The notes beneath the pieces are model-generated. The model did no database searches. It had not been told where the DNA came from and worked only from the letters and a program-made list of their open reading frames with translations. This document shows positions 13,066 through 41,724 of a stretch of DNA of 64,000 nucleotides, in pieces. Position 1 is the first letter of the stretch, and the number at the start of each line of letters is the position of its first letter. This DNA comes from Nemertoderma westbladi. Taxonomy: Eukaryota > Animalia > Xenacoelomorpha. The stretch is from assembly GCA_032718475.1 (NCBI GenBank), contig JAUCBJ010004884.1, positions 24,012-88,011 of the forward strand, read 5' to 3'. The position numbers were made by a program, and so were the translations under genes.

Positions 13066-13075
13066 TGGCGCCCGA
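13066..13075 (+). other. Primer-binding site of element A, tRNA-Lys type
   Basis: TGGCGCCCGA directly after the 5' LTR matches the first 10 nt of the canonical tRNA-Lys(UUU) PBS TGGCGCCCGAACAGGGAC. Confidence 0.8.
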
Positions 13076-13253: not shown

Positions 13254-15237
13254 ATGAACGAACCGCAACAGAAGACATCCAAAGAGACTCAAGCAACGAA
13301 AACGCCCTCAAACCAAGGGAGAGCAACTCTGATCAGTTCACGAAGTGGAGTACGTTCAGCAGCAACAAAACTAATGAAATCAATCGAAGATATTAGCACC
13401 TACGATGATCACAACAAAAACAGTAGACTGGCGATGTTGTTGGACTACAAAGATCGACTTAACTCATTAAACGAAAAGGTATGGTCTACCATGTCTGAAA
13501 CTGAACAGGACATTGACTCAGAGGTGTGTATAGAGTATGAGTTTAAATTAACAGATATTATTACTGGTTTTAGGTTATCATTTAAGACTTCAGAACGTGA
13601 TAGTAAAGTAGTATTGCCGGCAACCCCAAGTAACGATTTTGTCAGTACATCATACTCTAGTGCTGCTAATGCGTATGCAACCAGTTCACTAATTGCTAGG
13701 GATGTTTTGCCTAAACTAAGTCATGAAACTTTTGACGGTAATCCATTGCAATTTGTCACATGGCGTGATTCATTTATTAGCTCAGTTGAAGATTCTGGTC
13801 TACCAGATATTTTAAAATTGCGACATTTGCTACAATCATTAAAAGGTAGAGCCAAGGAACTTTTTAAAAACTTCCCTATTTCCGATGCAAACTATAAAAT
13901 AGCCTTGGATACATTACAACAGGAATATGGCCAAAAATATCGTATTATTCAGAGTCATATTGATGCTTTAAAGGGCATTTTTCATACTCACGGGAACACA
14001 TCCTAATTGCGTGCAGTATACAATACATGTACTACCACTATGCGTGCATTAAAAACATTAGATGTTCAACCAATTGAATACCAACGAATCATTATTCCTG
14101 AAGTATTAAAAACGTTAGATAATGACTTATCTAAACGTTTCTTACGAAAGAAAAACAATAACATTGATTCTATTGATTGGCTCATGGAAAATATTCACGC
14201 AGAACTAGCTACTATAGAAACACTAAATGAAATAAAATACGGCATTCAAATAAATCACAGCCAAGTTCAACAAAAATCAAGCTCATATGAACCACCTGGA
14301 TTGGCACCTTCAGCAGCGGCACTGGCTGTAAATGTCACAAAGCAACAACAAAACACTCACCAAAGACAATATTATTCTAGTACACAAAGGCCATCAAATT
14401 TCACAAATAAGGGTAAAGAAGTATCAAGGGGTAACACAACAACACCTAAATGCGTTTTTTGTGACCAACAACACTTTTCATCAAATTGTAATTTAATTCC
14501 CGAAGTTTCAAAACGAAAAGAATTTTTGAAGGACAAAAGGCGCTGCTTTAATTGCTTAAATGAAGGTCATAATATTCGTTATTGTTCACGACAAAAACCG
14601 TGTTATAAGTGTCATTACATGGGGCATCATACAGCTATTTGTACATGGAAAGATAAGACATATAATAGAAGTCAACAAGGCCCAGGAAATAATACAACAA
14701 CGGGTACGGCAGCTCAAAGTAACCTAGTAGGAGTAGTCCCTTCTTACAGTGACAATGACAATTATATATTTTTACAAACCGCGAAAGTCAAATGTGCCCT
14801 CGGTGTGGAGACTTCAATAAATACACTTTTCGATCAAGGTGCTACGTTAACATTCATTAGCAGACAGTTTGTCTTATCCCGAAGATAATGACTTTAATGT
14901 TGAGTTACTCATAGGAGCAGACCAATATTGGAAGTTCGTTTCTGGTACAATCATTCGAGCGACTAACTCTGACCTTGTAGCTGTTGATAGTGGCGTAGGT
15001 TGGTTACTGTCGGGTAGTATTTACAACAAAGTACACGCTTATTCCAATCACAAAGTTACAAATTTATGTACACCAGTTACATTAACAAATATAAGCTGCA
15101 ACAATCTTCAACAGAAAAACGATGATGACATGTTGTATAAATTATTCGAAACCTACTGCGATATAGAAAGTACAGGGATACAACCAGAAGATACAGAAGA
15201 AATGTTCAAGCATATATTCACATATGAACAAGGAAGG
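13254..15237 (+). pseudogene. Element A gag-protease region; in-frame stop at 14004-14006 and a deletion/frameshift near 14870
   Basis: LPKL..FDGNPLQFVTWRDSF (DUF1759-like); three BEL-type Cys/His knuckles (CVFC..H..C, CFNC...GH....C, CYKC...HH..IC); protease LFDQGA and LLIGAD. Confidence 0.9.
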
Positions 15238-15364
15238 TATAGAATTATATTCCCTAAATGCCGTGGATTTTCAAAATTTTATTTTTATTCGAATTAACTT
15301 TGTAAAGATTGCTTTGAGTTCTCATTCGTATTTGTTCTATCATTTGTACGCCTATTGGTCAAGT

Positions 15365-15451
15365 GGTTCAGTAGCTCAGTCGGTAGAGCGTTGGAAATTA
15401 TATGTGTAGTAGGTATTGAGTTCGAATCCTAGTAAGTGCGAATTAATTTTT
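15365..15451 (+). promoter_or_regulatory. tRNA-like Pol III internal promoter inside the LTR of element B (second copy at ~30045-30131)
   Basis: A box/D-arm TAGCTCAGTCGGTAGAGC; B box GAGTTCGAATCC at 15418-15429; T-run terminator at ~15447; acceptor and anticodon stems do not form. Confidence 0.7.
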
Positions 15452-15517
15452 GTGCAGAATTTCATCTCATTTAAATTGACCGCTACAAATTAAATTGCAT
15501 TCGTTTGTACCTAGATT

Positions 15518-15680
15518 AACCAATGAGACTGCAGTTATTAGATTGTATCCAATGTCGTGCAAGTTATACATTAGCTGGACCAATGGTTATCTTTAAAAAC
15601 CCAATATAATTATAGAATGTTCTCGATTGATTGCAGCACAAATTTGCTATATAAAGGTGCGATTTGTTCATTAGTTATCT
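15518..15680 (+). promoter_or_regulatory. Putative Pol II promoter of element B LTR: four spaced CCAAT boxes plus a TATA box
   Basis: CCAAT at about 15520, 15549, 15580 and 15601; CTATATAAAGG at ~15647; Inr-like TCATTAGTT at ~15668. Confidence 0.55.
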
Positions 15681-17961
15681 CATTGCTCTAACTCGTTGCA
15701 ATTCATTCTATTGAGTTATCTGATTTTGTTTATTCTGTCATTAGTTCTCAGATTACATTTTGTATTATTATCTGCAATAAATTCAGAAATACCGCTATCT
15801 GCTTTTCTTTTACCATGATTCACTACGGTGAACCCAGCTAAGGGACAGGATGGCCAGCTAGAGATCGGGCCGCAGCAATGAACGGGAACATCACGGGAAT
15901 GTAGGCAAGAGACAACCCGCAATACCATCTTGAGTTATTCGCCCATCGCCTGAAAGGTTAGACAGCGTTTGACGCCTTGCTACCTAAGTATAAGACCAAA
16001 AGATCAAAAGGTAGAAGTAGTGACACGCTGTGAGCCTAAAATTACATCTTAGGGACTGTACTGTCTTGATTCAGGAAAAAACCACAGTAGACCTTCACAT
16101 TCCTATGGGGGGGGAGAGAGAGAGCGCAGGCAGATACTAGTACGCAGATAGGACGTAGGCACACCGGTACGAAGCATACAAATTGGTAGGGTGCAGCAAA
16201 CTGTACGCCTAACTCTTGCTAAGTACAGGTGTGTGTGCGACTATTTGTAGTACGACAGTGTCCATTGCATTAGAACTTGTAGGCTAGGGGGGTTGCTGTG
16301 TTTTCACCTGAATTGGGATTGTACCGTTCAGGCGGTAGGGCAGTTTACAGCTAGGCGCAAATAAATTGAGGCTATTAGGGATACTAACATCTACCGTGTC
16401 CCCGCCAACGCCCTAATAGGAAGTTACCCGGACTACCTGGGTGACTAAAATTCTAGATAGGAGCCAGGATAGCTATTAGTAACTGTACGCCTACAGTAGT
16501 AAACTAACACATCTCTTCTTAGTATCAGGGACCTGGTACCTAAAATTGCCGAATTCTGGGCGTAGCATTAACCTTATGCCTGAATTTGAGTCCTGGAAAT
16601 ACGCAAGAGGGGAAGGAACCTTATCATTCGTGAGTATTGGACCTACAAGTTGAAAAATTAGAATATTCGTAAAATGCACACCGTACCCAGTAATTATATA
16701 TGTGAAGGAGCAAAACTGTTTTTGACCGTTCAGAATTAACACACGCGCGTTAGAAATTTATTTACACCTCAAAATATATAAAATTAACTTTTGTCCGTAC
16801 TGTGCTTTGCCCGCTAGTTAGACATCTCCAAATCTCTGCCTGTACCTAGCTAGCGTCTCTTCGCCCAAACCATATAAATCACACCGCGGCAAAGTGTACG
16901 AACCCCTTAGTCCGTCAGTGAGTCAGCCTGACTTTAGGATTCGCTGCGCGGGATTTTGTTTTATCGAAGTTTGTCTGCTCGTAGACTGTTTTCTGCCTCA
17001 CCGGTTATAAGAGATCGATACTGCAATATATTCGCTTACTTAGAGTTTACTGTTTTGGTGAGAAGGTCAGATTTATGATTTGATTTACAAACTTTACAGT
17101 AAGATATTGCAGGTATTGTTACTGTCTCTTCGAATAGTAGGAATGTGTTTTACTGAACTACGGTTCGGTAGGACTAAAGTTATTTGAAAATTTTGTATTT
17201 TGAGGTAAAAGTTTGTATTTGATTAGCTAAGTGCTAATTTTTTTTTTTTTTTTGAAATAAAATTTGATTTAAACCGCGTGTAAAATATTTTGGAATTGAA
17301 TACCGGTGTTTAAAAGGGTTTAAATACCATATTGTACCGGTACAAAATTTTTTCGTAAAGTAAAACCTAACTCTTTTGTTTTTTCAGGATTCAGAACTCA
17401 TTTCTAGACTGTAACGGGAGCAAGACCGTGTTTAGCAAGTTTGGGAGATAGATAACCCAACAACTTTGGTTGGGAAAATCGCGTTTCGTCCGCAACGTTA
17501 AAAACGGAAGGGTTCACTTCACGTCCGGTTTGTATCTGGGAATCTGTTTTTCTGGAGAATTATTGGAGTGGGTGAGTTCGAAAAGTTGCATAAATAAGTT
17601 AGGCATTACTGTATTAGTTAAAATTATTGTGGGTTCCACTGTCTCAAGTATTTATGCATTCCGTAAGATTTCTTTGTTCATTGCTGAATTAGTCCGTATT
17701 ATTGTATTTAATTTACCTTTTGATAACGCATATCGTTATCCGATTTATTTGTTATAAAATTGGCCGCTAGGCTAATTTTATTATATACTTATTCCGTGAC
17801 ATTTATTTGCTGTAAAATTGGCCGTTTAGGCTAATTTTATCCATCTGCTATAAAATCGGCCGGTAGGCTAATTTTATATGACTGTAATTAGTACCGTTTA
17901 GATATAAATACGGTAAACTCGATACTTTGACACTCACTTTACTTGACTTACAACTATCGAA

Positions 17962-20900
17962 ATGAGTGACAAACAAGACTATACGAAGAATACACAAACC
18001 GACTATGACTCATGTGACGCGGATAAGTCAGCAGCGGAAGAACAACAGGGGAAGACTCGCGAGCCTACCAAACCTACACCGTGTGCGTCACCAGTACATC
18101 CAGCGGGAGTACCGGATGCCGTAGTACGAGGCGACGGCAGGACCGAGGACTTTCTAACTGTTCCGCAACCTAGATACAGGGAAACGGACATGGTAAGTTC
18201 AGCAGGAAGTCAGGAAAGCGTTGTTAGGAGCGTCGGTGGATACATGGCGCATATAACCAGGAGTATTGGAGAAGGCCAACGCATATTAGACGAGTTGACC
18301 GCTCCGATGTCTCGATTCGAGTTCTACACCCTCCAGGTTAGAGTGCAAACTAGAGTACACAAGTCCGTAGATAACCTAATTGGTCTACAAGATCTAGCTA
18401 GACAGAGACAGGACATGGATACTCAACTTAGAATCCTCGAGAAACTAATGATCGCTAGAGAGAAACTGATTCAGTTTAAGTCGACGATTAGGCAGACACA
18501 ACAGGAACAAGTAGACCAGTTGTTAGGTGAGTCAGTTTCGGACGAATTATTGCAGCCCGAGGAAGAACAGGAACTGTACCGACTGGATGAACAATTGAAA
18601 CATCTGACGGACCACTTACGTATGTGCGGCGAAGACGTCGGCGATTTGGAAACCGTGCCGGAATATACGAGGGAAACTTCACCCGTACGAATCGAATCGG
18701 CACCGGGAATACTGGACCAATCGTTAGTGAGTATTCGCAGCGAAATTGGCGAGATAAGTATAGTGACGTCAGAAATTTCCAGACAGCAACAACAACATGA
18801 TAGACAACAACGGGAAGATGAGGAACAAGCTCAATTGTTGACGGCACAAGCGGCGGTAGAAGAAGAAAAACTACGTGTTGCGAATGTTGCAAGAATCTCT
18901 CATCTGCAAGAACAAGCCGAGTTGGAAGCGGCCGAGATGGAAAGGTTGGAGTTGGACATCGCCCAACAAGCGGCAGCGGCCGAGTTAGCGCAACGAACGG
19001 CAGCAGCAGCGGCTGAGTTAGAGCGACAGAGGTTAGTATCAGAAGCGAGAGCCGAGATGAAAAAACGGCAAATAAAGGCTCAATCAGCTATACGACAAGC
19101 GGAGTTCGAGGCGCAACAACAACAGACGGAACAACGCGAGAAGGAAGTTAAACTTCATTTCGAACTCGGGAAGAAGGCGAGAGAATTAGCCAACGCGAAG
19201 GAAGATCTGGATCTACAAGCCCGTGATCGATCGATGAGATCTCGAGACGGACATGACTTGGACCAGATAGAGGTAAGACATCGCCAAATTCAGGAACGGA
19301 AGAAGGAAGGAAGCGTAGGAGCACCCGGACGGGAACGACAATTAGTAAAGGACTTGTGTCAACGATTCCCACAGGTAACTCATATGTTTGCACCGGTTAC
19401 GACTAAGGAACCTGTTTCGATTGCTGGTAGTAGTAATATTTCTCCTATCCATGGTGCGACGGAACACAGGTTTGTTATTCCGGACAAGTTTACACCGCCA
19501 AGAGCAACGTCGTCGCCTATTCCGAAAGTCAAGGTAAGCAACCCGCCGATTACAGATCGTAGTAGTTTGTTGACTGGACCTGCACTACTGACGACTAAAC
19601 AGGTGAGTCCACCGTCGACACCTAAACCCGTTACACACTACGCTTACCCAATGACGTTTCGACCTGCAAGGCAAGTCGATTCAGCTGTTGCTCGACCACC
19701 GGTTCAGTTTACATCGCAATCTACGACTTCGAGGAAGACTTGTGAGCCTACCGAACAACGGAGAACAGTGGATACGCGACCGGTTCAGTTTACATCGCAA
19801 TCTACGACTTCGAGGAAGACTTGTGAGCCTACCGAACAATGGAGAACAGTGGATACGCGACCGGTTCAGTTTACATCGCAATCTACGACTTCGAGGAAGA
19901 CTTGTGAGCCTACCGAACAACGGAGAACAGTGGACGATATTCCGAAACGAAACGTGAGAATTCGTACGACGCAACGGACGCGAGCACGTCGACCACCATA
20001 TCCAGATGATAGTAGTACTTCAAGCGAATCGGATTACCCGAAACGCGAGGTATTTAGAACAGGGGCGGCCGATGAATATAAACGCGAGCGTTCAGACAAC
20101 TCCTTTGTAGACAATCCTCCACAGAATACACCAACACAGAAGGCGTTACAACCAACGGACGCAATCAGTACACAACAGTTCGCCGACATCCTGCGACCAG
20201 TTGTTAACAAGTTGGCTCAGATCGAGGAACGTCTGGAGGAAGGTTACACCGACAGTTCGAGAAATTCCGAATTCGAACACAATAGACACCCGAATGAACC
20301 ACAAAGACCGGTACCTTCAAAACATACATCGTATCAGGGAAAAGCGCCAAGAAGGGAGAACATCAACCAGGTTACCAACCAAGGACGCGAAACTCTGAAC
20401 GTTGCCGAGGAGATAGCGAAATTCGCAGCCAGGCAAGGATTGCCGGTACAACAACCACCGAAGTTTTCCGGTAGTTCAAAACACTGGCACACATTCGTAG
20501 ACTATATCGAATCTCAGATCGCCGTGTGCGCCTTTACATCACGGGAGAAGTTTAATTACCTGCTTCAAACGTTGTCAGGAGAACCTAAACGTTTGGCAGA
20601 GACCTTCGTTGGTGTACCGGACGCCTTCGAACTAGCGTACGATCGTTTAACTTCGATATACGGAGGTACAGTCAGTATGGCCAGGTCAGTAATAGAGGAA
20701 CTCTGTAAGGGAGGGGCTATTACTAAACCCGTCGACTTATTAAAACTTGCTGACGAGATAAGGAACGCTATCACTACTTTAAGATCCATTGGACAACTTG
20801 ACTACGGGAATACCCCTACAGTCCTATTAAAGATCATAGGACGACTCCACCATCGACTTCGTCGGGAGTGGAGAAAGATCGAATACCAGCGAGAAGAGCG

Positions 20901-23900
20901 GGGTGGATTCTTAAAACTGGAGGACGTGTACCTTTTAATATCCAGGGAGGCAGTAGTAGAAACTCGATCCAACTACACTGACCAGCACATCGTGGCAGAA
21001 GGAATCACATTGCCATCCTCCAACCGACAAAAACCCCAGACAACATCTACCAAGACGGCCACTTACGCCACACCAACGGAATCACGACAATTCTCGGACG
21101 GTAGTAGGGTATCTGCGCCCATTGGGACGAAACAGACGAGACAGCAACTTGGTACCGACTTCAGTGGCTGCCAATACTGCGAGCATTTAGGCAAGCGGTA
21201 TATCGGTCACAAGTTGCGAAGTTGTCGACAGTTTCGCGAGTTGAACTCGGAAGAACGACGGCTGCAAATACGGCCATTGGACTCTTGTTGGCGGTGTACG
21301 CGACACGGACACGTCCGTAAAGATTGCCCAAATACCGACACTTGTCCATCCTGTGGACGCAACCACGACGGTCTGCTCCACACGGACAGCCACACGCCGA
21401 CAAAACGCTTCGCCAGGGAACACCCGGAAGCAGCAGCGAGATGTGATGCGGCCTACAGAAAACGAGAATCGAAAACGACTCCAACCTTCGTGACCCATAT
21501 TGAGGATTGCTTCTCAGAACAATCCGGATCGTCGGACGAAGAGTCAGAAGACGACGACGTATATTCGGATGGAGATGAACAGCCATCGATCGCGCTTCTG
21601 ACTACTGACCAACTGAAGGGATTCAGTGTAATTCCGATTAAGATTACTGGCACAAAGGGGAGCAAGAGAATCTACGCGATTCTAGATTCAGCCTCATCTC
21701 ATAGCTACGTGGATGAAAAGATAGCTGACGTCGTGACGGATCTCAGACAAGGTAAGCGCGTCAGTTATACCGTAAGTAGTATGCACGGACAGCGTGCAAT
21801 ACCAGTGACACGAGTTAAGTTGGACTTAGACTCTCTTCTTCCAAAATCGCAACACAGCGAGAGGGAGAGGTCTTTGTTACCCTTCAAGGATCTGACTTTT
21901 GCGGCCACCAAAGACTTTAGTAACCTACTAGGTCCGGTCCCAGAACAATCCTTGGAGGACCGTAAGTATTTCAGACACCTTGGTGTACCTGAATGTCCTG
22001 TCAATTATAGATCGGTAGCAATGCTGATCGGGACGGACCAATTCAACCTACATCAGGTGTGGGAAACCAGACCATCGGCAGTCGTAGCGGGAAACGCATA
22101 CGCCTGCAGAACGCCGATAGGGTGGTATACTCGAGCGCCTGTGCGCACACTAGACGTAAGTGACGAGGAAGAAGATGTACAAAGTACATGTAGTTTACTA
22201 ACTACAAATTCAATCCATTCCTTTTCACACGATGTGGACCATACTACCTTACATACAAGACATGACAGACGTGTAACTAGTATGATAAGTCACAAGGAGC
22301 AGCTAATTCACCAGGTGCGGAAATCGATACAACATTGGCCTCCGTTATACGACAACAAGTCTAACACCATCCCTAAGGACGCCGAAATCAAGAAACCAAA
22401 AGAGGGGAAGGCAAAGAAAAAGACGACGGCGGCGAAACTCAAGAAAAAACCGAAGGCGAAATGGAAAGATATAACTTCAAAGGTCAAGAGAGGAAGACTT
22501 GCGAGCCTTTCTACACCAGACATATCGCCAGACGGTCAACCAGACACGTTACCAGACGGTCAACGAGACACGTTACTAGACGGTCAACCAGATGTTTTGC
22601 CAGACATATCACAAAATGTTCTACCAGACACTAGTGACATACTGACAAACAGTAAAGCCGCAGTTTCTCTATTGGAGCGGCCTTCTATTGACAAACAACC
22701 AGATACGTTACCAGACGTATCGCCAGACACATTACTAGACAGTCGACTAGACATTTTGTCAGAAACATCACAAAATGTTCTACCGGACATTAGTAATGTA
22801 TTGACTAACAGTAAAGCCGCAGTTTCCCTATTGGAGCGGCCTTGTATTGACAAACTACCAAATTTGACACACTTGAGCAACCATAAGCACGGTGAAACCT
22901 CATGTATTGCAGATGTGGGTAGTACCTACGCTAATGTAAATACAGGTGTTACTTTGCGCTCAAGAGACATACCGAACTTGCAACCTATGGTGAAACCTGG
23001 GATTAATGTCGGCAGAAAAATAAGTTTACCGAAACCTGCTGACCCCATAGAGTTCAAACCACCATTAACGATCGACTTACAAGGTACTGACAATCAAGGT
23101 AAGAAGACGAAGAAGGACAAATTACTTGTAGACCCGGACGGATCAACAGTCAACAAGGGAATACTTACCGGCGGACCCGTGGGCCCTTCTAGTAATTCAA
23201 AACCTTCCAAAATCTCCATTGAATTACCTGATGACGTCACAAATACTCACGTCGACCGGATTGTAAACTTAACAGATTCTTGGACGAACGCTTGCCGAAA
23301 ATTAGCGTGGATTGTACGTTTTGTACAATACGTTAAAGGCAAACGTGACTTTACACGTCGACTTACATTGGCTGAGATTGACAGGTGTGAAATTAAATTA
23401 ATTCGCCATTACCAACTGCGATATTTCGCGCGCGAATTCACATCCATAAATCAAGGTCAACCTATTAAGTCGTCACCAATACTGAGTTGGAGTCCGATAA
23501 TTTATAATGGCTTACTTTGTCATAAATCTCGGCTTCAAAACATTGACTTTAACACAAACTTTAGGTACCCAATAATAATACCGCAACACCACGAACTACA
23601 ACGTGCAATGATACTGGACGCACATTTACATCTGAAACACGCTGGAAGACACCACTGTCTTTCCTACTTACGTACAAGATTTGTATTGATTAGACCTAGT
23701 AAAGCGTTAAGTTCAGTGACACGTACGTGTATTATTTGTAAAAAGGTACATTCTAGAATAGGTACCCAGGAAATGAGTGAACTTCCACAAGCACGACTTC
23801 AAGCATTCAGACCACCTTTTACAGAGACTGGAATTGATTGCTTTGGTCCCATACATACGAAACGTGGACGTATACTAGTAAAACGCTGGGGACTGATTTT

Positions 23901-24759
23901 CACATGTATGTCCAGTAGGGCAGTTCATATTGAACGTGTGATGGATCTTTCCACCAACGCGTTTATACTAGCATTGCGGCGATTTATCGCTAGACGCGGA
24001 CTAGTGAAATGCTTGTACTCAGACCAAGGGACAAACTTTGTTGGTGCTCGGAATGAGATTGCTAGAGCCCTTAAGAAATTAGATCATGATCAAATCTCGA
24101 ACGAACTACAACCTCATAAGATTGTTTGGAAGTTTAATCCTCCAGATAGTCCATGGAGAGGCGGAGTCTGGGAGAGATTGATTAGATCTATCAAGACAGC
24201 CATGGCAAAGGTCATTCCAGTAAACCACATACTGACAGACGACCAACTGACAACATTGTTTGTTGAAATCGAGGCAATACTAAATACTAGACCAATAGTA
24301 TTAGTACCCGATGACAAACAATCTCAATTTGCTTTAACACCGGCACACCTGCTAATGCAGGCACCGACCACTTTGACGCCGATTTCTATTCCAATAGAAA
24401 GCGATAGCTACGGTAGAAAAGCGTGGAAAATCACGCAACTACTGGCTAACAAATTCTGGGAAATATGGCAAAACCATTATTTGTCCTCTATTTCTGCCAG
24501 AACAACATGGTACAATAATACCCGCGCATTAAAGCCGGGAGATCACGTGCTGTTAGCAGAAGTGATTCTAAAAAGACGCTTCTGGATAACAGGTGTAATT
24601 TTAGCCACACATCCATCTATGGATGGAGTGACAAGAACTGTGACGGTACGGACAATTGACGGTCGTACAGTAGACAGACCGACTCAACGTCTCGTACTTC
24701 TTGAAGAGACTCGTAACGAGTCTGGAGACTACAAATCTCCACCTAATACTAGTAAATAA
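17962..24759 (+). CDS. BEL/Pao-type Gag-protease-integrase polyprotein lacking RT and RNase H (2265 aa, uninterrupted)
   Basis: Coiled coil; PPKFSG..HWHTF (DUF1759-like); three Cys/His knuckles; protease AILDSAS..LIGTD; a low-complexity/repeat linker with no YxDD; then HHCC (HLHLKH..CIIC), catalytic IDCFGP / SDQGTNF / GGVWERL and the BEL integrase C-terminal domain. Confidence 0.92.
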   Translation: MSDKQDYTKNTQTDYDSCDADKSAAEEQQGKTREPTKPTPCASPVHPAGVPDAVVRGDGRTEDFLTVPQPRYRETDMVSSAGSQESVVRSVGGYMAHITRSIGEGQRILDELTAPMSRFEFYTLQVRVQTRVHKSVDNLIGLQDLARQRQDMDTQLRILEKLMIAREKLIQFKSTIRQTQQEQVDQLLGESVSDELLQPEEEQELYRLDEQLKHLTDHLRMCGEDVGDLETVPEYTRETSPVRIESAPGILDQSLVSIRSEIGEISIVTSEISRQQQQHDRQQREDEEQAQLLTAQAAVEEEKLRVANVARISHLQEQAELEAAEMERLELDIAQQAAAAELAQRTAAAAAELERQRLVSEARAEMKKRQIKAQSAIRQAEFEAQQQQTEQREKEVKLHFELGKKARELANAKEDLDLQARDRSMRSRDGHDLDQIEVRHRQIQERKKEGSVGAPGRERQLVKDLCQRFPQVTHMFAPVTTKEPVSIAGSSNISPIHGATEHRFVIPDKFTPPRATSSPIPKVKVSNPPITDRSSLLTGPALLTTKQVSPPSTPKPVTHYAYPMTFRPARQVDSAVARPPVQFTSQSTTSRKTCEPTEQRRTVDTRPVQFTSQSTTSRKTCEPTEQWRTVDTRPVQFTSQSTTSRKTCEPTEQRRTVDDIPKRNVRIRTTQRTRARRPPYPDDSSTSSESDYPKREVFRTGAADEYKRERSDNSFVDNPPQNTPTQKALQPTDAISTQQFADILRPVVNKLAQIEERLEEGYTDSSRNSEFEHNRHPNEPQRPVPSKHTSYQGKAPRRENINQVTNQGRETLNVAEEIAKFAARQGLPVQQPPKFSGSSKHWHTFVDYIESQIAVCAFTSREKFNYLLQTLSGEPKRLAETFVGVPDAFELAYDRLTSIYGGTVSMARSVIEELCKGGAITKPVDLLKLADEIRNAITTLRSIGQLDYGNTPTVLLKIIGRLHHRLRREWRKIEYQREERGGFLKLEDVYLLISREAVVETRSNYTDQHIVAEGITLPSSNRQKPQTTSTKTATYATPTESRQFSDGSRVSAPIGTKQTRQQLGTDFSGCQYCEHLGKRYIGHKLRSCRQFRELNSEERRLQIRPLDSCWRCTRHGHVRKDCPNTDTCPSCGRNHDGLLHTDSHTPTKRFAREHPEAAARCDAAYRKRESKTTPTFVTHIEDCFSEQSGSSDEESEDDDVYSDGDEQPSIALLTTDQLKGFSVIPIKITGTKGSKRIYAILDSASSHSYVDEKIADVVTDLRQGKRVSYTVSSMHGQRAIPVTRVKLDLDSLLPKSQHSERERSLLPFKDLTFAATKDFSNLLGPVPEQSLEDRKYFRHLGVPECPVNYRSVAMLIGTDQFNLHQVWETRPSAVVAGNAYACRTPIGWYTRAPVRTLDVSDEEEDVQSTCSLLTTNSIHSFSHDVDHTTLHTRHDRRVTSMISHKEQLIHQVRKSIQHWPPLYDNKSNTIPKDAEIKKPKEGKAKKKTTAAKLKKKPKAKWKDITSKVKRGRLASLSTPDISPDGQPDTLPDGQRDTLLDGQPDVLPDISQNVLPDTSDILTNSKAAVSLLERPSIDKQPDTLPDVSPDTLLDSRLDILSETSQNVLPDISNVLTNSKAAVSLLERPCIDKLPNLTHLSNHKHGETSCIADVGSTYANVNTGVTLRSRDIPNLQPMVKPGINVGRKISLPKPADPIEFKPPLTIDLQGTDNQGKKTKKDKLLVDPDGSTVNKGILTGGPVGPSSNSKPSKISIELPDDVTNTHVDRIVNLTDSWTNACRKLAWIVRFVQYVKGKRDFTRRLTLAEIDRCEIKLIRHYQLRYFAREFTSINQGQPIKSSPILSWSPIIYNGLLCHKSRLQNIDFNTNFRYPIIIPQHHELQRAMILDAHLHLKHAGRHHCLSYLRTRFVLIRPSKALSSVTRTCIICKKVHSRIGTQEMSELPQARLQAFRPPFTETGIDCFGPIHTKRGRILVKRWGLIFTCMSSRAVHIERVMDLSTNAFILALRRFIARRGLVKCLYSDQGTNFVGARNEIARALKKLDHDQISNELQPHKIVWKFNPPDSPWRGGVWERLIRSIKTAMAKVIPVNHILTDDQLTTLFVEIEAILNTRPIVLVPDDKQSQFALTPAHLLMQAPTTLTPISIPIESDSYGRKAWKITQLLANKFWEIWQNHYLSSISARTTWYNNTRALKPGDHVLLAEVILKRRFWITGVILATHPSMDGVTRTVTVRTIDGRTVDRPTQRLVLLEETRNESGDYKSPPNTSK
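19696..19936 (+). repeat. 81-bp (27-aa) in-frame tandem repeat, 3 copies, in gag
   Basis: RPVQFTSQSTTSRKTCEPTEQRRTVDT repeated three times. Confidence 0.95.
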
Positions 24760-25418
24760 TTAGGAGTTTACAAACAGATTTCCACTTACCTGTACACTGT
24801 AGTAAGGACAGCGGTAGAATTCCATTGTCTTTATATGTCAACATTGAGGGTAGTACCCTTATGTGTCACATAGGAGCGGGATTTGTAGGTATAAGAAATG
24901 GAATTCTACTTGGAACTCACAATATTGAGACATTTTCGAAATTTTAGACAATCCATTTGGATTTGAAAAATTTTTAAAAATTTTCTCCAGTGAATATATT
25001 TCAGGGTACAGTCGGGTGGAACTTAAAATTAGAGAAACAAGAGAGGAAGACTTGCGAGCCTTTCTTAAAATTTTAATTAAATTTTACACGGTCTTGTTTC
25101 AATAAGTTACGTCAAAATAGACTCCCCTATATTTATTACTAATTCTTGACTGCTTATTTTCTGATAATAGTTTGGGATCAAAAAGTGAGTATTTTAGACT
25201 CACAGCCAGTTTAGCCCAAATTCGTTTTTATTTCGGCAAAAATTTTAGATAAGAAGCAGCGTGTCATTAAAGAAACCCTAGATCTTAGGCTATGGGTAGG
25301 AGGTTAGAGCGTTGTCAAGCCCAAAGGGCAGACGAAACTCTCATGTCTCCTCACAACTAACTACAAACTCTGTTGTATTCCCTCTAGTAGTAATGATTAT
25401 GTAACTACACCCCTAATT

Positions 25419-28253
25419 ATGGAGAAAGGGATACAAGGAGAGCCGAGATGGGGATATGATATCCAGGAGGAGGCAGCAGCGCCATTCGAAAGATTTGGAG
25501 CCAAGGACTATACTATATTTGGTATAAAGGAATTATCGGAAAGTACAGCGAAACTCGCGAGAACTAAATATGACTCGAACGTATTAAAGAGAAGGCAAAA
25601 TGCATTAAACGAAAGAATCGAAAGTTTGCGCCAAACCTTCAACGAACTTTACCCGTACGACGCTTTGTGTGATACGGGAGACATTAGCGAAGACCCCGAT
25701 ACCGAAATTAGTCGTTTGTATCATACCATGCAATACCTAAAGGCGCACGAACCTATGCCCGCGGTAAGAGATGAATTCGATGGAATGCATCTTTACAGAC
25801 GAACTCGAGGGGATGATAGAGAAACCAAGGAAGCATTTTCAGTGTATAAACTTTATTATCAATGCGGTTCTTGTATGCGCGAACAACGAAATGCGATTCC
25901 GATGCGTTTGAATAAGGAAAATCCCGAACCGATATTGGCGAGGTGTTCGAATCATCAACAACTACGCTACCAGGAAGGAGGGTATCCTTTATCGAATCCA
26001 TATCATTCATTTGCTATGACCGGACCAAAAGCGGGAGAAACTGTCATTTACCCACCTAAGGTTGTTGAACCCGATGTATTTGAACTTACGCTGGACGAGG
26101 CAAATCAGTCAACCCGCGAAAAGAAAGAAGCTCTTAGCCTATACAGAGCCTACAAGGCTTTCGAGAAAGGTGAGATGGAAGAATGGGGCGGAAGACTCGC
26201 GAGCCTACCTTGCCATTGGACGTCACACGATCAAACTCCAGCTAAGGAGATGACACCGGAAGTTTTCGAGAGCATAAACTTTGCTCAAAACGTTATTCAG
26301 AGACTACAGATTGCATCCCCGGAGAGGACCAGAGAAATGCAACCGTATAGTACTTCAACTACGAAACCATTGAGTACGACACTCAACTTTCCTATTAGTA
26401 TACCAGTCCGACAGGATACGACGTACGAAATACCCATCGTGGATCATCCAGAAATCATTTCGAACTTGGAGTTTCTTCCTGCAGTTGTTTTCAGCGATAT
26501 GAGTAAGATATATGATTTACGTAGACATATTACTCAAAAGGTCGTGTACAACGTTCCACCTCATATTCAAGATTTCAAGGAACTGGATAGAGCTGGTGCC
26601 GATATAGCTCCGAGTAATCTGAAAGGATATTTAACCAAGACGATTCGTTTATGGATTGGAACCGGAACCTTCGAGTCGGATACAGATATTGCCGCAGATT
26701 GGCGAGGTAAGGTTATTCGTTTCGAAGATGATAAGGACATAGAGAAGATTTGGCAACCTTCGGAAGAATTGTTGGATGAATGGAATAGGACGTTTAGATC
26801 GTTTCAGGAAAACGGTTACATGTTTTACGATAACGAGGGCGGCAGTCATCAGCAGAGTTTGACTTCTAAGACTATACAGATTAGAGCGGCGGACGGAGTC
26901 CTGCACGTTTTCAGTAGACAGAGGAGCGACAAACGAATGCCGATACCTCCAGCGAATACAAAGCGACACCATCTTATCACCGATATAGTAAAGAAGATGG
27001 ACCAAGCTTGTAATATCGACGCTAGAATGCTACCGAAGATGGTAAGAAACATGATTTTAGATAAAACTGTTGTAAAGATTGGATCAGGAGTAAGGGAGGA
27101 TTTAATTAGCGACTTCGCCGGCATGACGGACAGCGATGACCGACTACCGACACCTTACGTCGACACTCGACCTCTTATTTTGTGGTCTATAGAACAGGGA
27201 TATTTTCGTGAGTATAATACTCAGAAGACTGGAACTGGATACATTTCCTACCTGTTATTCAATTGGGATTATAAGGAAAATAAGAGAAACAAGTATATTG
27301 AAACTTATGGAGAAGGTGATACTCCAGATATGAGTGAGTTTGAATCACAGCTTAAATGGAGAGGATGCGTGTATTGGGCTATTACGTCACCTCCAAGAGC
27401 GGTCTTACAATATTATTTAGCAATAGAGTCGTCAGTGAATGTTTGCCTAATCGCCGACATTGTGTCTCGGACTCTCAAAAGACATCCACTTTGTCTCGGA
27501 GATGATCATACGTTCTACATGGAAGGGAGAATTCGTACCGACGTGTTTAGACGATTCCTTGAACCCTTCTACAACTCCGACGCTCAGTGTAATGCCTTTA
27601 CTCGAGCAGGATTTAGTATATTTCGAGATGTGTATCTTCGCTGTGCGGGATCTCTTATCGAAAGACCATCTATGTTTACATTGTTACCCTATGAAGGAGA
27701 ACGTATCGTGGAGATTACGGAAGAATCACGGCAGACGCGCGCGCCTATCGGTCACCTCGGTGATGATTTCGAAGTAACTACTACGATCGCTGACGATCCT
27801 TTAGAGGAACTTCTTGAGATAGAAAGGAACCTCCCGAAGAAATCTCAGACGGAGATTCGACAACTTGAAGCAACAGATGCTATAGTTTGTATACAACCTT
27901 CAGAAACCTACCAACCCATAGACCCAGATGATTACGATTATAGTGTGGGAGGAAGCGCTCGACCGATTGGAGATCTTATATACGAACGAGTGTGGTACCC
28001 TGCCAATACGATGTGTAGTAAATGTGGCGTCGCTGGACATCATATGACAAAGTGCAGTGGAAAGCACATTACTACGACTCAGCTAATCTGTGGATGGTGT
28101 GGGGATCAAGGGTCTCATACCTTTTATACTTGCTGGAGATTTATGGCTCAATGTACTTACTGCAATATAAAAGGACATCGAGCATCTGAATGCCAACTAA
28201 GAGACATACCTTATGAACACGAATCTGTAAAACTCGTGAGGAAATTATTTTGA
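25419..28253 (+). CDS. Element B ORF2: DEDD (DnaQ-like, WRN/EXD/mut-7-type) 3'-5' exonuclease-like domain plus three CCHC zinc knuckles
   Basis: ExoI-like YMFYDNEG...TIQIRA; ExoII-like LPKMVRNMILDKTVVKIGSGVREDL; ExoIII-like YYLAIE; knuckles CSKCGVAGHHMTKC, CGWCGDQGSHTFYTC and CTYCNIKGHRASEC. Confidence 0.7.
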   Translation: MEKGIQGEPRWGYDIQEEAAAPFERFGAKDYTIFGIKELSESTAKLARTKYDSNVLKRRQNALNERIESLRQTFNELYPYDALCDTGDISEDPDTEISRLYHTMQYLKAHEPMPAVRDEFDGMHLYRRTRGDDRETKEAFSVYKLYYQCGSCMREQRNAIPMRLNKENPEPILARCSNHQQLRYQEGGYPLSNPYHSFAMTGPKAGETVIYPPKVVEPDVFELTLDEANQSTREKKEALSLYRAYKAFEKGEMEEWGGRLASLPCHWTSHDQTPAKEMTPEVFESINFAQNVIQRLQIASPERTREMQPYSTSTTKPLSTTLNFPISIPVRQDTTYEIPIVDHPEIISNLEFLPAVVFSDMSKIYDLRRHITQKVVYNVPPHIQDFKELDRAGADIAPSNLKGYLTKTIRLWIGTGTFESDTDIAADWRGKVIRFEDDKDIEKIWQPSEELLDEWNRTFRSFQENGYMFYDNEGGSHQQSLTSKTIQIRAADGVLHVFSRQRSDKRMPIPPANTKRHHLITDIVKKMDQACNIDARMLPKMVRNMILDKTVVKIGSGVREDLISDFAGMTDSDDRLPTPYVDTRPLILWSIEQGYFREYNTQKTGTGYISYLLFNWDYKENKRNKYIETYGEGDTPDMSEFESQLKWRGCVYWAITSPPRAVLQYYLAIESSVNVCLIADIVSRTLKRHPLCLGDDHTFYMEGRIRTDVFRRFLEPFYNSDAQCNAFTRAGFSIFRDVYLRCAGSLIERPSMFTLLPYEGERIVEITEESRQTRAPIGHLGDDFEVTTTIADDPLEELLEIERNLPKKSQTEIRQLEATDAIVCIQPSETYQPIDPDDYDYSVGGSARPIGDLIYERVWYPANTMCSKCGVAGHHMTKCSGKHITTTQLICGWCGDQGSHTFYTCWRFMAQCTYCNIKGHRASECQLRDIPYEHESVKLVRKLF

Positions 28254-29068
28254 TGAGTGGGAAGATTTAGCCGACGAACATGTATCGGCACAAAGAAGAC
28301 GGTTTCCGATGAGAGCGCATCTCGGATTTTGGGCGGCAAATCCTCAAACGATGATGTCGGAAGGATATATCTCCGCTATGCCCCAATATGACGAACTTAT
28401 CGAGGTTGTCGATATATTGCCCCACGACAGCGGATTCCGAGTGGTGCGCGAGTATCTACTACAGATTCACCCGGATAACAAAAACACGTGGAATTTTCAG
28501 AAAGTCGTTAACCGCATTACGTATGGTGAATTATAAACGTATACGAGCGAGCGTATTCGAGGAAGAGGAGGTCCTAGAGGCGACAAATATACCAGCCACT
28601 CCGGTTGCGCCGTCTGCACGTCACCCTCGGGAGGACGGACAGGGTAAGATCATACGGGTCCAGAAAGTGGGCCAACAATTAAAGAAAATTATTAATATAG
28701 AAGAACGCAAGGGAGTTGAGCCGACCATTCGAGTTACTCGAGATACGGTATCGCTTCCAAGAGAACCAGTAGGAGGATCGGGACATACACCAGCTGATCA
28801 ACAGGGGGCGCAAGCTACTCTTGGGTCTGCGTCGTCCGCTTCTCGCGCGTTCCCAGACGTTCTACCAACTGTAGTGACAACTGATCGGTCACGAGGAATC
28901 GGTCGAGGTTTTGGGATGCCAAATAGACGAATTTGCGAAGAAATAGTCGCACCGTCTCTCAACGTCCCAAGTAAACCAGTGACTCGCCCCATTAGTCCCA
29001 TATCGCGAGCAAAGTCACCTGTGCGCAGTTTTCGAGGACGCGGCAGGGCTCGATCCACTAAGCGATAA
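28254..29068 (+). CDS. Probable frameshifted C-terminal continuation of ORF2 (or a separate ORF3) with an Arg/Ser/Pro-rich basic tail
   Basis: Removing one T from TTATTTTGATGAG joins KLF to DEWEDLADEH...MRAHLGFW (to 28536); an overlapping frame then runs to RGRGRARSTKR* at 29068. Confidence 0.5.
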
Positions 29069-29917
29069 AAGGGAGGGCAAGGGTGGACGGAAGACTCGTG
29101 AGCCTTTCTTATGATTTTGTGATTTATTTGAATTTATATTTATATTCGTGTTTATTCCGAACTTATGCAATTTGTATTGTTCCGAATTTATGAAATTTAG
29201 AAATAAGAACTCATATTTAGTAAAACTTATATTTGGTAAGACTTATATTTGTAAGAATTTATATTTTATATTTGTAATTATTCCGAACTTATGCAATTTA
29301 TATTATTCCGAACTTATGCAATTTATATTGTTCCGAATATTATGCAATTTATATCTTATAAGTAGTATTTGTATTTACAGTGAAATAGAAAGTAAGAGTA
29401 GATGGAAGACTCGTGGGCCTTTCTTATAGTTTCATTTGTAAAGTGTTATATTTTGTATTTAGAAAGTTTTATAGTCAGAAAGTTTTGTGCTTAGAAAGAC
29501 TCATATTTGTAATTATTCCAAACTTATGCAATCTACATTTAGGTACGAAAGTATTTGTAATTATTTTGTATTTATGCAATATTTGAGATGCAATAGTAGA
29601 TGGAAGACTCGCGAGCCTTTCTTATTGTTTTCATTTATTTGTATTTGTAATTGTTTGAATTTATGCAATATTGAGATGCAATAGATTTATATTGGTGAAT
29701 TTAGTTTAGATTTATATTGTACTTACTTAGTAAAGCCTTAAATACGTAAAGTTTGAATTTGTAATTATTTTGTATCGAATCATTACGTAGAAAGGAAGTA
29801 TTATTTGAAATTTAATTTGTAAATATGTAAGTAAGCCCTAAGTATTCTATAGTTTGATTGATTATTGGTGAAAACCGTATATTTTATGCACGATAATATC
29901 CTGTTTTCATGGAGCGG

Positions 29918-31815
29918 TATAGAATTATATTCCCTAAATGCCGTGGATTTTCAAAATTTTATTTTTATTCGAATTAACTTTGTAAAGATTGCTTTGAGTT
30001 CTCATTCGTATTTGTTCTATCATTTGTACGCCTATTGGTCAAGTGGTTCAGTAGCTCAGTCGGTAGAGCGTTGGAAATTATATGTGTAGTAGGTGTTGAG
30101 TTCGAATCCTAGTAAGTGCGAATTATTTTTTGTGCAGAATTTCAACTCATTTAAATTGACCGCTACAAATTAAATTGCATTCGTTTGTACCTAGATTAAC
30201 CAATGAGACTGCAGTTATTAGATTGTATCCAATGTCGTGCAAGTTATACATTAGCTGGACCAATGGTTATCTTTAAAAACCCAATATAATTATAGAATGT
30301 TCTCGATTGATTGCAGCACAAATTTGCTATATAAAGGTGCGATTTGTTCATTAGTTATCTCATTGCTCTAACTCGTTGCAATTCATTCTATTGAGTTATC
30401 TGATTTTGTTTATTCTGTCATTAGTTCTCAGATTACATTTTGTATTATTATCTGCAATAAATTCAGAAATACCGCTATCTGCTTTTCTTTTACCATGATT
30501 CACTACGGTGAACCCAGCTAAGGGACAGGATGGCCAGCTAGAGATCGGGCCGCAGCAATGAACGGGAACATCACGGGAATGTAGGCAAGAGACAACCCGC
30601 AATACCATCTTGAGTTATTCGCCCATCGCCTGAAAGGTTAGACAGCGTTCGACGCCTTGCTACCTAAGTATAAGACCAAAAGATCAAAAGGTAGAAGTAG
30701 TGACACGCTGTGAGCCTAAAATTACATCTTAGGGACTGTACTGTCTTGATTCAGGAAAAAACCACAGTAGACCTTCACATTCCTACGGGGGGGAGAGAGA
30801 GAGCGCAGGCAGATACTAGTACGCAGATAGGACGTAGGCACACCGGTACGAAGCATACAAATTGGTAGGGTGCAGCAAACTGTACGCCTAACTCTTGCTA
30901 AGTACAGGTGTGTGTGCGACTATTTGTAGTACGACAGTGTCCATTGCATTAGAACTTGTAGGCTAGGGGGGTTGCTGTGTTTTCACCTGAATTGGGATTG
31001 TACCGTTCAGGCGGTAGGGCAGTTTACAGCTAGGCGCAAATAAATTGAGGCTATTAGGGATACTAACATCTACCGTGTCCCCGCCAACGCCCTAATAGGA
31101 AGTTACCCGGACTACCTGGGTGACTAAAATTCTAGATAGGAGCCAGGATAGCTATTAGTAACTGTACGCCTACAGTAGTAAACTAACACATCTCTTCTTA
31201 GTATCAGGGACCTGGTACCTAAAATTGCCGAATTCTGGGCGTAGCATTAACCTTATGCCTGAATTTGAGTCCTGGAAATACGCAAGAGGGGAAGGAACCT
31301 TATCATTCGTGAGTATTGGAACTACAAGTTGCAAAATTAGAATATTCATAAAATGCACACCGTACCCAGTAATTATATATGTGAAGGAGCAAAACTGTTT
31401 TTGACCGTTCAGAATTAACACACGCGCGTTAGAAATTTATTTACACCTCAAAATATATAAAATTAACTTTTGTCCGTACTGTGCTTTGCCCGCTAGTTAG
31501 ACATCTCCAAATCTCTGCCTGTACCTAGCTAGCGTCTCTTCGCCCAAACCATATAAATCACACCGCGGCAAACTGTACGAGCCCCTTAGTCCGTCAGTGA
31601 GTCAGCCTGATTTTAGGATTCGCTGCGCGGGATTTTGTTTTATCGAAGTTTGTCTGCTCGTAGACTGTTTTCTGCCTCACTGGTTATAAGAGATCGATAC
31701 TGCAATATATTCGCTTACTTAGAGTTTACTGTTTTGGTGAGAAGGTCGGATTTATGATTTGATTTACAAACTTTACAGTAAGATATTGCAGGTATTGTTA
31801 CGGTCTCTTCGAATA
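29918..31815 (+). repeat. 3' LTR of element B (1898 bp)
   Basis: Direct repeat of 15238-17136; preceded only by a short purine-rich ATGGAGCGG. Confidence 0.95.
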
Positions 31816-31820
31816 GAAGG

Positions 31821-36290: not shown

Positions 36291-36536
36291 CAAGGGGGAG
36301 TGTCATAAATTATACTTAGGCCATAGCTAATATCCAATATAAGATACAAGTATATTAGCTTGCCAATATTGTAAACTGTTGAAAGAAGTTGAAACATATG
36401 TTAATCTTGGAGGTTTGCCGGCAGTATTGTAAAGTAAATATATATAGGTTATTCAATTTAGATAAAGATTATTATTAAAGTTTATTAGAAGTTTGTAGCT
36501 ATCATTTTCCTTTCAATTTATCCACAATTCACTATA
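36291..36536 (+). repeat. PPT (AAGGGGGAG) and 3' LTR of element A
   Basis: Purine tract at 36292-36300 directly precedes the LTR copy at 36301-36536. Confidence 0.93.
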
Positions 36537-36962
36537 GGGCTTAAGTTATAATTATATAAAGGCAGCACTCTGCCGCCTTGGGGCTTAAGTTATAATTATA
36601 TAAAGGCAGCACTCTGCCGCCTTGGGGCTTAAGTTATAATTATATAAAGGCAGCACTCTGCCGCCTTGGGGCTTAAGTTATAATTATATAAAGGCAGCAC
36701 TCTGCCGCCTTGGGGCTTAAGTTATAATTATATAAAGGCAGCACTCTGCCGCCTTGGGGCTTAAGTTATAATTATATAAAGGCAGCACTCTGCCGACTTG
36801 GGGCTTAAGTTATAATTGTATAAAGGCAGCACTCTGCCGCCATGGAGTTTAAGTTATAATTATTCAAAAGGCGGTACCTTTATGAGCATGGTCCTTAATT
36901 ATTTCAAATGAAAAAGGCGGCAGTGTGCTGCCTTTTCTAATGGTTGGTACGCAAAGGGTTAA
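36537..36962. repeat. 44-bp tandem array, right part (about 7 copies), ending in an inverted unit and a piggyBac-like AGGG-TTAA end
   Basis: Same unit as 11750-12829; inverted AAAGGCGGCAGTGTGCTGCCTTT at ~36913-36935; CGCAAAGGGTTAA at 36950-36962. Confidence 0.85.
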
Positions 36963-38216: not shown

Positions 38217-39539
38217 CTTCTCTCACCTCTTCAATGTCAGATGTTGCAAATACTGATAACACGAATAACGGTATATATTTCAATACTTGTCAATAGTAAT
38301 ATATATAATTTAGATAACTATTTTATATCTGTACTGTTGAGCAAACTCTACATAAATTCCAACCTGTGTATCGCTGTGCAAGTGCTGAAGTATGTGACGG
38401 GATCCAGGAGGGATCCCGATTTATCCGATGTGGTATTTAGTCCACGCGTCCCCGCCGTGTATAAGAGTGAAATAAAGATAACTGAGTTCTGAAGTTCGGT
38501 GTATAATAAGAGGTTATAGGATATAGATATATTGTGAATTGTACGGTAGGCGGGATACGGTAACTAAAGTCCCGTGATCCCCTAACTAAACTAATTGGCT
38601 GTACCCTACGCTAGCACTGCTGCACTGAGATAACTGAATCACTGATTACTAGGTTATTGGTTATATTGCACGGTGGCCTTACTGCTACTCAATCGATGCC
38701 ATTCCCCCCTCTGATTGGTTAATACCCTTGTTGGCGCCCCGTGGAGTATTCCCGTTCACTCCACCTGTTCTCCTTGGGTTAGGGGTTTGGCCCCTGACCC
38801 TCTATTGTGTGCCTCCTTCCCACTCTTATTGGGATGGCACGAGTTGGTTAATTGCCCAATCTCGTGGCTCCCAATATTGCTTATCGGCTAATAACTTTAT
38901 GGGGTGTTGGCGGGATTGAATAAGCTAACACTCCCCCCCATGCTATCTTCCCGGTAAGAAGATAGCATCAACCAAAAAGTGCGTTACAATCCCGCTGGAT
39001 CCCGATCTAGCATCGGGTGTGGGGTGGAAATCTTTTCTCTCGGAGTCGGCTTTCCAGGCCGCTCCCTCTGGGTATGATAACGCTACCCTTTACGCCTGGC
39101 GTCTCATGTCGGGCCGATCGCGCTCACCTCTTCACGCGACTTTTGTTTCCCCAACATTTTTGCCCTATCTCACCTTCACTCTCACCCTAACTCTCTCATA
39201 CCCCCGGACCTCCTCGTCCCTCACTCAGCCTCTTATTCTCCCCCCCCACACTAGAATTGCGTTCGCACTCTCTCCGCACTTCGCACTATCACTCCATCCC
39301 TCCTTGACTACCTTATCCCTTCTGACGAATCTCACCCCCCCTCCGTGCCGTCGCACTCAGGAAATGTGAAATCGTCTGGCGTCTTGTCTCTAGTGCCATA
39401 GTCACTTAGCCCCCCAGTCCCAGTAGCTAATTGAGAAAGGTTGTATGACTATAGTACTTACACCACTATCTCCGCACTCCGCACTATCACCTCTCCACTC
39501 TCTTGTCACTCCCTAAGGCTTTAATCTCTAATGCTACCC

Positions 39540-41700: not shown

Positions 41701-41724
41701 TTATTATTTAATTATTTTATTTAA

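Follow-up and report, generated by a model that had tools for sequence, protein, structure and literature searches.

A predicted DEDDy-like exonuclease gene with zinc knuckles in a BEL-lineage retrotransposon that carries a candidate self-primer

We analyzed a 64,000-nucleotide (nt) stretch of the Nemertoderma westbladi assembly GCA_032718475.1 (contig JAUCBJ010004884.1, positions 24,012 to 88,011 of the forward strand), called the window here. It contains a BEL-lineage long terminal repeat (LTR) element of 16,578 nt (15238-31815, + strand, as are all of its features below), inside which lies ORF2, an open reading frame with a putative DEDDy-like 3'-5' exonuclease domain. The 5' LTR (15238-17136, 1,899 nt) starts with TAT and ends with ATA, not TG..CA, and the 3' LTR (29918-31815) is 1,898 nt long. 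The two are identical at 1,884 of 1,898 aligned positions (99.2%), with 14 mismatches and 1 gap. A 5-bp target-site duplication (15233-15237 and 31816-31820) lies within the pol reading frame of a second BEL element that surrounds this one, the outer BEL element. The empty site is present in run X1, as a contig linking 15232 straight to 31816, and likewise in run X2. Thus, the element boundaries are confirmed. Its LTRs and target-site duplication, together with a gag, a protease, and an integrase that are of BEL type and arranged as in Metaviridae, place the element in BEL/Pao. It is a young or recently active BEL-lineage retrotransposon with an intact accessory gene.

ORF2 (25419-28253, 944 residues) is stop-free and sits between the gag-pol frame (17962-24759) and the 3' LTR. 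It comprises an unannotated N-terminal half, the exonuclease-like domain (26757-27488, approximately residues 447-690), an acidic linker, and three CCHC zinc knuckles (28014-28193). The candidate ExoI motif is D471/E473 (26829-26837, with GAT at 26829 and GAG at 26835). ExoII would be D561 (GAT at 27099) within KIGSGVRED (residues 553-561), with a D582-T583 motif downstream, and ExoIII would be Y666-x3-E670 (27414-27428, E670 at 27426) within YYLAIE (residues 665-670). The first and third knuckles are C-x2-C-x4-H-x4-C (residues 866-879, 28014-28055, and residues 912-925, 28152-28193), and the second has a five-residue loop, C-x2-C-x5-H-x4-C (residues 891-905, 28089-28133). Pfam zf-CCHC matched the knuckles at E=0.0029, under the curated cut-off. 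An earlier note, made from the sequence alone, had described D-x-E, KIGSGVRED, YYLAIE, and the three knuckles in the env (envelope) position, and we recovered all of these motifs at those places in one stop-free frame. The env position holds as a location, between pol and the 3' LTR, but not as an identity. We found no transmembrane segment in ORF2 (best 19-residue hydropathy, 1.38), and thus ORF2 is not env; no Pfam env family matched it either, and we rejected an env function. In the N-terminal half, C-x2-C ... C-x2-H follows a possible coiled coil (25860-25960, approximately residues 149-179), without a Pfam match.

The earlier note had read the central domain as a DEDDy-type exonuclease. 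The signature LP..l..ll.d..i.KvG is typical of the WRN/EXD2/mut-7/RNase D group. We found support for a DEDDy-like reading in ESM Atlas matches of both ORF2 and a decayed homolog, in a profile match, in the motifs, and in alignment columns. ORF2 residues 430-720 matched a PF01612 cluster at 0.93; 24 of 30 matches were in the PF01612 set, with 168 of 256 features common. The NCBIfam DnaQ/epsilon model matched residues 467-530, over ExoI, at E=0.031. In a MAFFT alignment, D471, E473, and D561 fell on the invariant D, E, and D columns of reference exonucleases. ORF2 shares with the WRN exonuclease, EXD2, mut-7, RNase D, and NrnC (PF01612) the order DxE, [IL]Q[IL], K[IV]G-x4-D, DT, W, Y-x3-acid. 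An ordered six-motif pattern was found at residues 467-670, in 0 of 20,000 shuffles, and in ORF2 alone among 800 control ORFs, figures that are optimistic because the pattern was composed after ORF2 was seen; it recovers 11 of 19 reference exonucleases. ORF2 differs from PF01612 enzymes in having no profile match, in carrying insertions, and in having E as the fourth acid. Since no profile score lies above the family cut-off, we call ORF2 DEDDy-like and stop short of assigning it formally to PF01612.

Several results weigh against this assignment. PF01612 did not match ORF2 at E<=10 in Pfam, a PDB sequence search gave no significant match, and hhalign gave a nonsignificant E=0.27. With our own RNase D profile, 38 of 1,000 shuffles scored equally or better. 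The top three ESM Atlas matches of residues 430-720 were unnamed clusters (0.93-0.94), and the scores of ORF2 and the homolog lie in a range reached by 4-10% of shuffled proteins. The homolog's own top match was unnamed (0.94), with its PF01612 matches below 0.9; it has N at the ExoII D site, and ExoIII in ORF2 is noncanonical (E) or ambiguous.

The DnaQ-like fold proposed earlier was not confirmed. A single-sequence AlphaFold model was too poor to judge (predicted local distance difference test [pLDDT] score of 32), and a second model, built in a circular set-up with 42 bacterial RNase D/NrnC guides, reached a pLDDT of only 43. Foldseek and VIA-align on these models gave nothing meaningful. 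Searches for relatives were also negative: PHROGs and Pfam on ORF2 subregions gave noise only, a word-indexed search with residues 420-944 found 0 related proteins among 4,128 candidates, HMMER with residues 340-760 against 1.84 billion representatives found 0 at E<=0.001, and metagenome, viral, and phage scans found no ORF2 relatives. Among 80 metagenome BEL loci (integrase approximately 30-40% identical), tblastn and profile searches found no exonuclease, a weak test given that only 17 of 34 loci checked had at least 1.5 kb downstream. Separately, three of these loci (L012, L013, and L047; probably also L041, L053, and L076) have a second gag-pol less than 1 kb after the integrase, which suggests tandem arrays.

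The decayed homolog (459-1229, - strand) is broken by stops and frameshifts, and we see no parent element for it in the window. It carries counterparts of ExoI (1047-1061), ExoII (845-871), and probably ExoIII (543-557, by eye). It scored 59 against ORF2. None of 156 background windows and only 1 of 400 shuffles scored as high, so that by this measure the two are related, weakly but above background. They are approximately 25-35% identical, and the conserved stretches are the ExoI and ExoII segments; the ExoIII segment alone scores at background (36). DxE and YxxxE are both present. In the ESM Atlas, an 81-residue piece (797-1039) matched PF01612 clusters at 0.88 and 0.87 (recognition 3171). 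In the 0.88 cluster, the commonest taxon is Rotifera, and 17% of members carry the family. Four separate pieces of the homolog could not be usefully aligned by MAFFT.

These data bear on whether ORF2 resembles DEDDy enzymes only by chance or by convergence in an orphan protein. Every alignment- and structure-based test was nonsignificant, and 3 of 150 shuffles also reached 5 of 5 catalytic matches in the MAFFT control, as a chance likeness would predict. However, two diverged sequences independently reach the same family, the six motifs stand in order, and the segments conserved between them are ExoI and ExoII. We therefore regard chance likeness as improbable. A DEDDy-like exonuclease fold is, in our judgment, very probable for this domain, and we lean, with clearly less assurance, toward it being catalytically active.

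The earlier note had taken the acidic residue of ExoIII to be E, not D. This is the better reading, since the homolog also shows YxxxE by eye, but MAFFT proposes a canonical Y630-x3-D634 (27306-27320) instead. The latter is absent from the decayed homolog, and a third alignment chose neither site. Because the homolog shows W..RP followed by YxxxE, Y666-x3-E670 is the simplest choice, and the ExoIII acid is probably E670. None of the papers listed by our literature search on the effect of a D-to-E change at ExoIII contained the term. A domain that has kept the fold with weak or lost catalysis, and that binds element RNA as an adaptor during its packaging or transport, in the manner of EXD1, Maelstrom, or Egalitarian, would account for this change and for the N at ExoII in the homolog. 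It would also suit an insertion of approximately 30 residues between the third strand and ExoII in the alignments, the three knuckles, and the long N-terminal half. Egalitarian, which has a transport role, appeared among the RNase D relatives (E=2). Inactive DEDD derivatives are described in PIWI-interacting RNA (piRNA) biology in the accessible part of PMC5408684. Yet ORF2 has acids at all four positions and the homolog keeps DxE despite its divergence, and the same text judges bdelloid DEED ORFs, with their own D-to-E change, possibly active. The variants described below include only synonymous changes at D561. We consider a pseudo-nuclease unlikely.

We placed contigs of four runs on 26810-27440 and recorded variant sites at 5% or more. 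There were 47, with no indel and no joint. Among the best 40 of these 47, 26 were synonymous and 14 were not, with no stop; given their transition/transversion mix, 28.5% would be expected to be synonymous (nominal p=1.8e-6, omega approximately 0.2). In two cases, neighboring variants match each other in depth and would be synonymous if taken as a pair. Within the same 40, D561 showed synonymous changes only, and D471, E473, Y666, and E670 showed no variant. Loss of the acidic residues among family members, which the earlier note had said would speak against its reading, was thus not seen within this family. Diverged copies cross ExoI and ExoII without gaps (in X2, 67 differences over 422 nt). 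We see here an apparent signature of purifying selection on the exonuclease domain, against which it must be set that the variants are not independent events and that 7 of the 47 lie outside the count. Joints at 25558-27591 (X1 and X4) and 25578-27703 (X2) remove the domain; therefore, exonuclease-less derivatives exist.

We next consider ORF1 (2,265 residues), which encodes gag (DUF1759, knuckles), a protease motif, a low-complexity spacer, and an integrase (H2C2, DDE motifs, DUF5641). The integrase has 321 relatives among 7,994 scored proteins, and the best 120 of the 321 are of BEL/Pao type (32-45% identity). Pfam and a motif check found no reverse transcriptase (RT) or RNase H motif in ORF1 of this copy. 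The missing RT-RNase H corresponds to an in-frame junction at 22316-22318, between the protease and the WP motif that follows RNase H. Among the best 24 of 955 rows, contigs diverge from the window at 22316/22317 in at least 7 cases in X1, at least 4 in X2, and at least 1 in X4. The X4 loose end, read by hand, finishes with W-x-x-G-P-x-F, which marks the end of RNase H in BEL elements; a few residues upstream of the matching WP, the window's sequence picks up again. This motif pair occurs in the pol of the outer element and in 19 members of a set of 120 BEL proteins, a set in which many are too short upstream. The loss is most likely a single in-frame deletion specific to this copy or sub-lineage, as far as the contigs indicate, and the copy is a nonautonomous derivative of a BEL lineage. 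The earlier note had spoken of an RT-less BEL element; an RT-less BEL family was not supported, and we rejected it, since other copies seem to keep RT-RNase H. No contig of the runs spans both RT and ORF2. X4 covers gag, integrase, and ORF2 to similar depths (258, 430, and 290, respectively), from which we infer that RT and ORF2 coexist in one element.

Other features of ORF1 were noted. In the RT-bearing copies, the left break carries a splice-donor consensus, and close to the right break there is a site that resembles an acceptor (22314-22318, read by hand); a deletion at a 2-nt microhomology fits this junction better than an in-frame RT-skipping splice. A spacer rich in Lys and in Pro-Asp repeats (22350-23240) lies between the RNase H end and the integrase, and the distance from WP to RFV is 322 residues, versus 55 in the outer BEL. 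Gag contains three 81-nt repeats (19698-19940).

With no RT or RNase H motif in this copy, ORF2 could be thought to replace an RNase H lost by the lineage, a role that the earlier note had listed. This was not borne out. RT-RNase H loss looks limited to this copy or sub-lineage, which makes replacement unlikely. Moreover, an RT-less copy needs a helper RT, which brings its own RNase H, and cutting inside RNA:DNA hybrids is not something a 3'-5' exonuclease does. We give this explanation hardly any weight.

ORF2 may have its own message. A predicted GT..AG intron (17572-25387), with donor and acceptor both fitting the splice consensus in the window, would on removal put the leader 31 nt before the ORF2 ATG. 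One X4 DNA contig carries the splice-like joint, 17571 to 25388, at a depth of 211 and with a shorter side of 29 letters. That it was seen in one contig of one run only counts against it. ORF2 is likely translated from spliced RNA, and, judging by the contig, such a spliced ORF2 message may in its turn have been converted to DNA. Because such a message retains the primer-binding site (PBS), it could prime.

The PBS (17137-17147) abuts the LTR and does not start with TGG. It is complementary to a predicted self-primer at the likely start of R (16096-16106). The copy in the 3' LTR (30776-30786) is a perfect 11-nt complement, while the 5' copy ends in a G-U pair; 3.5e-4 exact matches are expected per LTR. 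When 16096-17170 was folded, 10 pairs had probabilities of 0.94-1.0 and the 11th had 0.68. A second duplex of 7 bp can form between the primer side and the end of U5, and a third duplex of the pretzel, on the downstream side, is weak (-8.7 kcal/mol). Thus, the complement, the fold probabilities, and the U5 duplex support the self-primer that the earlier note had supposed. The transfer RNA (tRNA)-type PBS of BEL/Pao is absent, there being no TGG and a PBS that matches the element's own LTR; priming by an internal tRNA fragment may be an alternative. The window also contains a gag-only LTR element (38393-46167, - strand). Its knuckles are BEL-like, its two 538-nt LTRs are of the TG..CA type and identical to each other, and its target-site duplication is 5 bp long. 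Its PBS can pair with a 9-nt segment inside one of its LTRs (45797-45805; 1.6e-3 expected, pair probabilities 0.5-0.68), and it is likely a second self-priming element.

This arrangement resembles that of Tf1 and sushi chromoviruses, in which an LTR segment complements the LTR-adjoining PBS and a further duplex joins the primer side and U5 (PMC4600332; bioRxiv 10.1101/2022.12.06.519325, for both in their accessible parts). Those elements belong to another superfamily, their LTRs end in CA where ours end in ATA, and R plus U5 would be approximately 1,040 nt here; the same accessible texts do not mention an accessory exonuclease. Compared with Belpaoviridae (ICTV profile, PMC8742986), which use an 18-nt PBS for host tRNA-Arg or tRNA-Gly, our element shares a DUF1759 gag, protease, DUF5641 integrase, single gag-pol frame, 5-bp target-site duplication, and third gene downstream. 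It differs in its LTRs (1.9 kb versus 0.2-1.2) and length (16,578 nt versus 4.2-10 kb), in having no tRNA-type PBS, TA..TA termini, and a third gene that is not env, and, in this copy, in missing RT-RNase H.

That the element exceeds this range even without RT-RNase H could point to a DNA-directed role, such as RT proofreading or trimming of complementary DNA ends, permitting an oversized genome and TA termini; the WRN and DnaQ relatives do act on DNA. However, much of the extra length comes from the LTRs, the spacer, and ORF2 itself, there are 15 differences between the two LTRs, and the knuckles suit RNA. We consider a role on DNA quite improbable.

Our leading explanation, which we hold as a tentative one, is that ORF2 trims the element's self-primer. 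Transcription would start at approximately 16096, so that the first 11 nt of the RNA would pair with the PBS, as in Tf1. The primer strand would be freed with a single-stranded 3' overhang, either by a cut of the family's RT-RNase H or as a second, shorter element RNA. ORF2 would act as a DEDDy-like 3'-5' exoribonuclease, holding on to single-stranded RNA with its three knuckles. It would digest the overhang until the duplex halted it, and RT would then have a paired 3'-OH to extend. Acting in trans inside the particle, it would allow RT-less and exonuclease-less derivatives still to be copied. We favor primer trimming because two rare features co-occur in one family, giving a plausible substrate. 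A wider scenario is doubtful enough that we only sketch it: a giant BEL lineage would have moved from tRNA priming to Tf1-like self-priming with its own spliced, knuckle-tethered DEDE primer-maturing exonuclease, serving in trans its autonomous, RT-less, spliced, and gag-only derivatives.

Three considerations weigh against primer trimming. The link between exonuclease and self-primer is a co-occurrence in a single family. Levin is said to have reported in 1996 that RNase H is all that Tf1 needs to generate its primer, and therefore trimming may be unnecessary. Finally, DEDDy ORFs in bdelloid rotifers also occur in Penelope-like Terminons, which are primed differently, and therefore the role may be independent of priming. 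The last point leads to counter-silencing, which we rank just below primer trimming, as nearly as likely and equally tentative. Here the exonuclease would degrade or mis-trim host small RNAs or their precursors, or clear the element's double-stranded or aberrant RNA, which would let the family evade silencing. A pool of DEDDy ORFs shared by retroelements with unrelated priming (PMC5408684 and PMC6431247, accessible parts) fits this explanation. So do the rotifer-rich cluster that is the homolog's best named ESM Atlas match, the status of ORF2 as a separate, probably spliced gene, and the depth of single ORF2 contigs in X2 (6,751 and 7,012, versus 72 for the empty-site contig; approximately 100 times, in depth and not copy number). 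Overexpression of TbRND, the RNase D of Trypanosoma brucei, shrinks a small-RNA pool, according to the accessible part of PMC7797062. On the other side, Rodriguez et al. report, in the accessible part of PMC5408684, that copy number is not clearly tied to ORF3. Mature piRNAs carry a 3' 2'-O-methyl group that resists exonucleases, which weighs against counter-silencing.

DEDDy accessory domains in LTR elements are called well known in the accessible text of PMC6338049, DEDDy is mentioned 3 times in PMC3706591 on Dada transposons, and the earlier note's bdelloid precedent was confirmed: by the accessible part of PMC5408684, the LTR retrotransposons Juno and Vesta and the Athena/Terminon elements carry a DEDDy ORF3. 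Like ORF3 as described there, ORF2 is in the env position, has no transmembrane segment, is RNase D-like, and has one D-to-E change; the rotifer-rich cluster of the homolog is a further likeness. Unlike in bdelloids, the carrier is BEL/Pao and the motif is DEDE versus DEED. Juno and Vesta are Ty3/Gypsy-type. ORF2 has three C-terminal CCHC knuckles, where the accessible part of PMC5408684 has 0 mentions of CCHC and gives a Cys-His-Cys motif in two ORFs. We see purifying selection on ORF2, whereas that text gives no departure from neutrality for bdelloid ORF3s. The closest architecture is that of TbRND (PDB 7c42/7c45), in which, per the accessible part of PMC7797062, four CCHC fingers accompany an RNase D domain and keep hold of single-stranded RNA while its 3' end is trimmed. 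Both proteins have an exonuclease domain, a linker, and then tandem CCHC fingers. TbRND is a cellular enzyme of mitochondria; it has four fingers, and its linker is short, while ORF2 has three fingers, a linker of approximately 170 residues, and a 440-residue N-terminal part. We regard TbRND as an analogue with no significant sequence match, not as a demonstrated orthologue.

The window holds further features. ORF3 (28355-29068, + strand, 237 codons stop to stop) has an Arg-rich end and no Pfam match. In X4, depth over 28163-30486 is approximately 10-30 times that on gag or ORF2, which suggests an abundant short derivative of the 3' part plus U3. By eye, U3 (30038-30120 and its 5' LTR counterpart) has tRNA-like A-box and B-box motifs, for which ARAGORN and Rfam gave 0 matches. 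The outer BEL element has a PBS beginning with TGG, a pol split by the inserted 15238-31815 element, and 44-nt tandem arrays in or beside its LTR regions (approximately 11704-13069 and 36295-36863). A host exon lies at 58947-59810, which we take to resemble a sodium/calcium exchanger, and several RTE-like LINE (long interspersed nuclear element) fragments lie elsewhere.

Our search of the openly available literature found, among the papers listed, no report of a DEDDy ORF in BEL or with CCHC knuckles, or of BEL self-priming, and the accessible part of the BEL/Pao survey PMC3118150 has 0 mentions of exonuclease. Noncanonical LTR termini are known from Troyka (CG..CG; PMC12440569, accessible part). 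What appears new here is the predicted Tf1-like 11-nt primer/PBS duplex, the TA..TA termini, the 1.9-kb LTRs, and the GT-AG joint into ORF2. What retroelement-borne DEDDy proteins do has been a question since 2017; according to the accessible part of PMC5408684, no activity has been demonstrated for them. In this family, an intact, selected DEDDy copy comes together with a defined candidate substrate, the primer/PBS duplex. Thus, primer trimming and counter-silencing can be separated in a single in vitro experiment. With this family, both DEDDy capture and self-priming would be extended to the BEL superfamily. In addition, TA..TA ends and the absence of a tRNA PBS would let such elements evade LTR finders built around TG..CA ends and a tRNA site.

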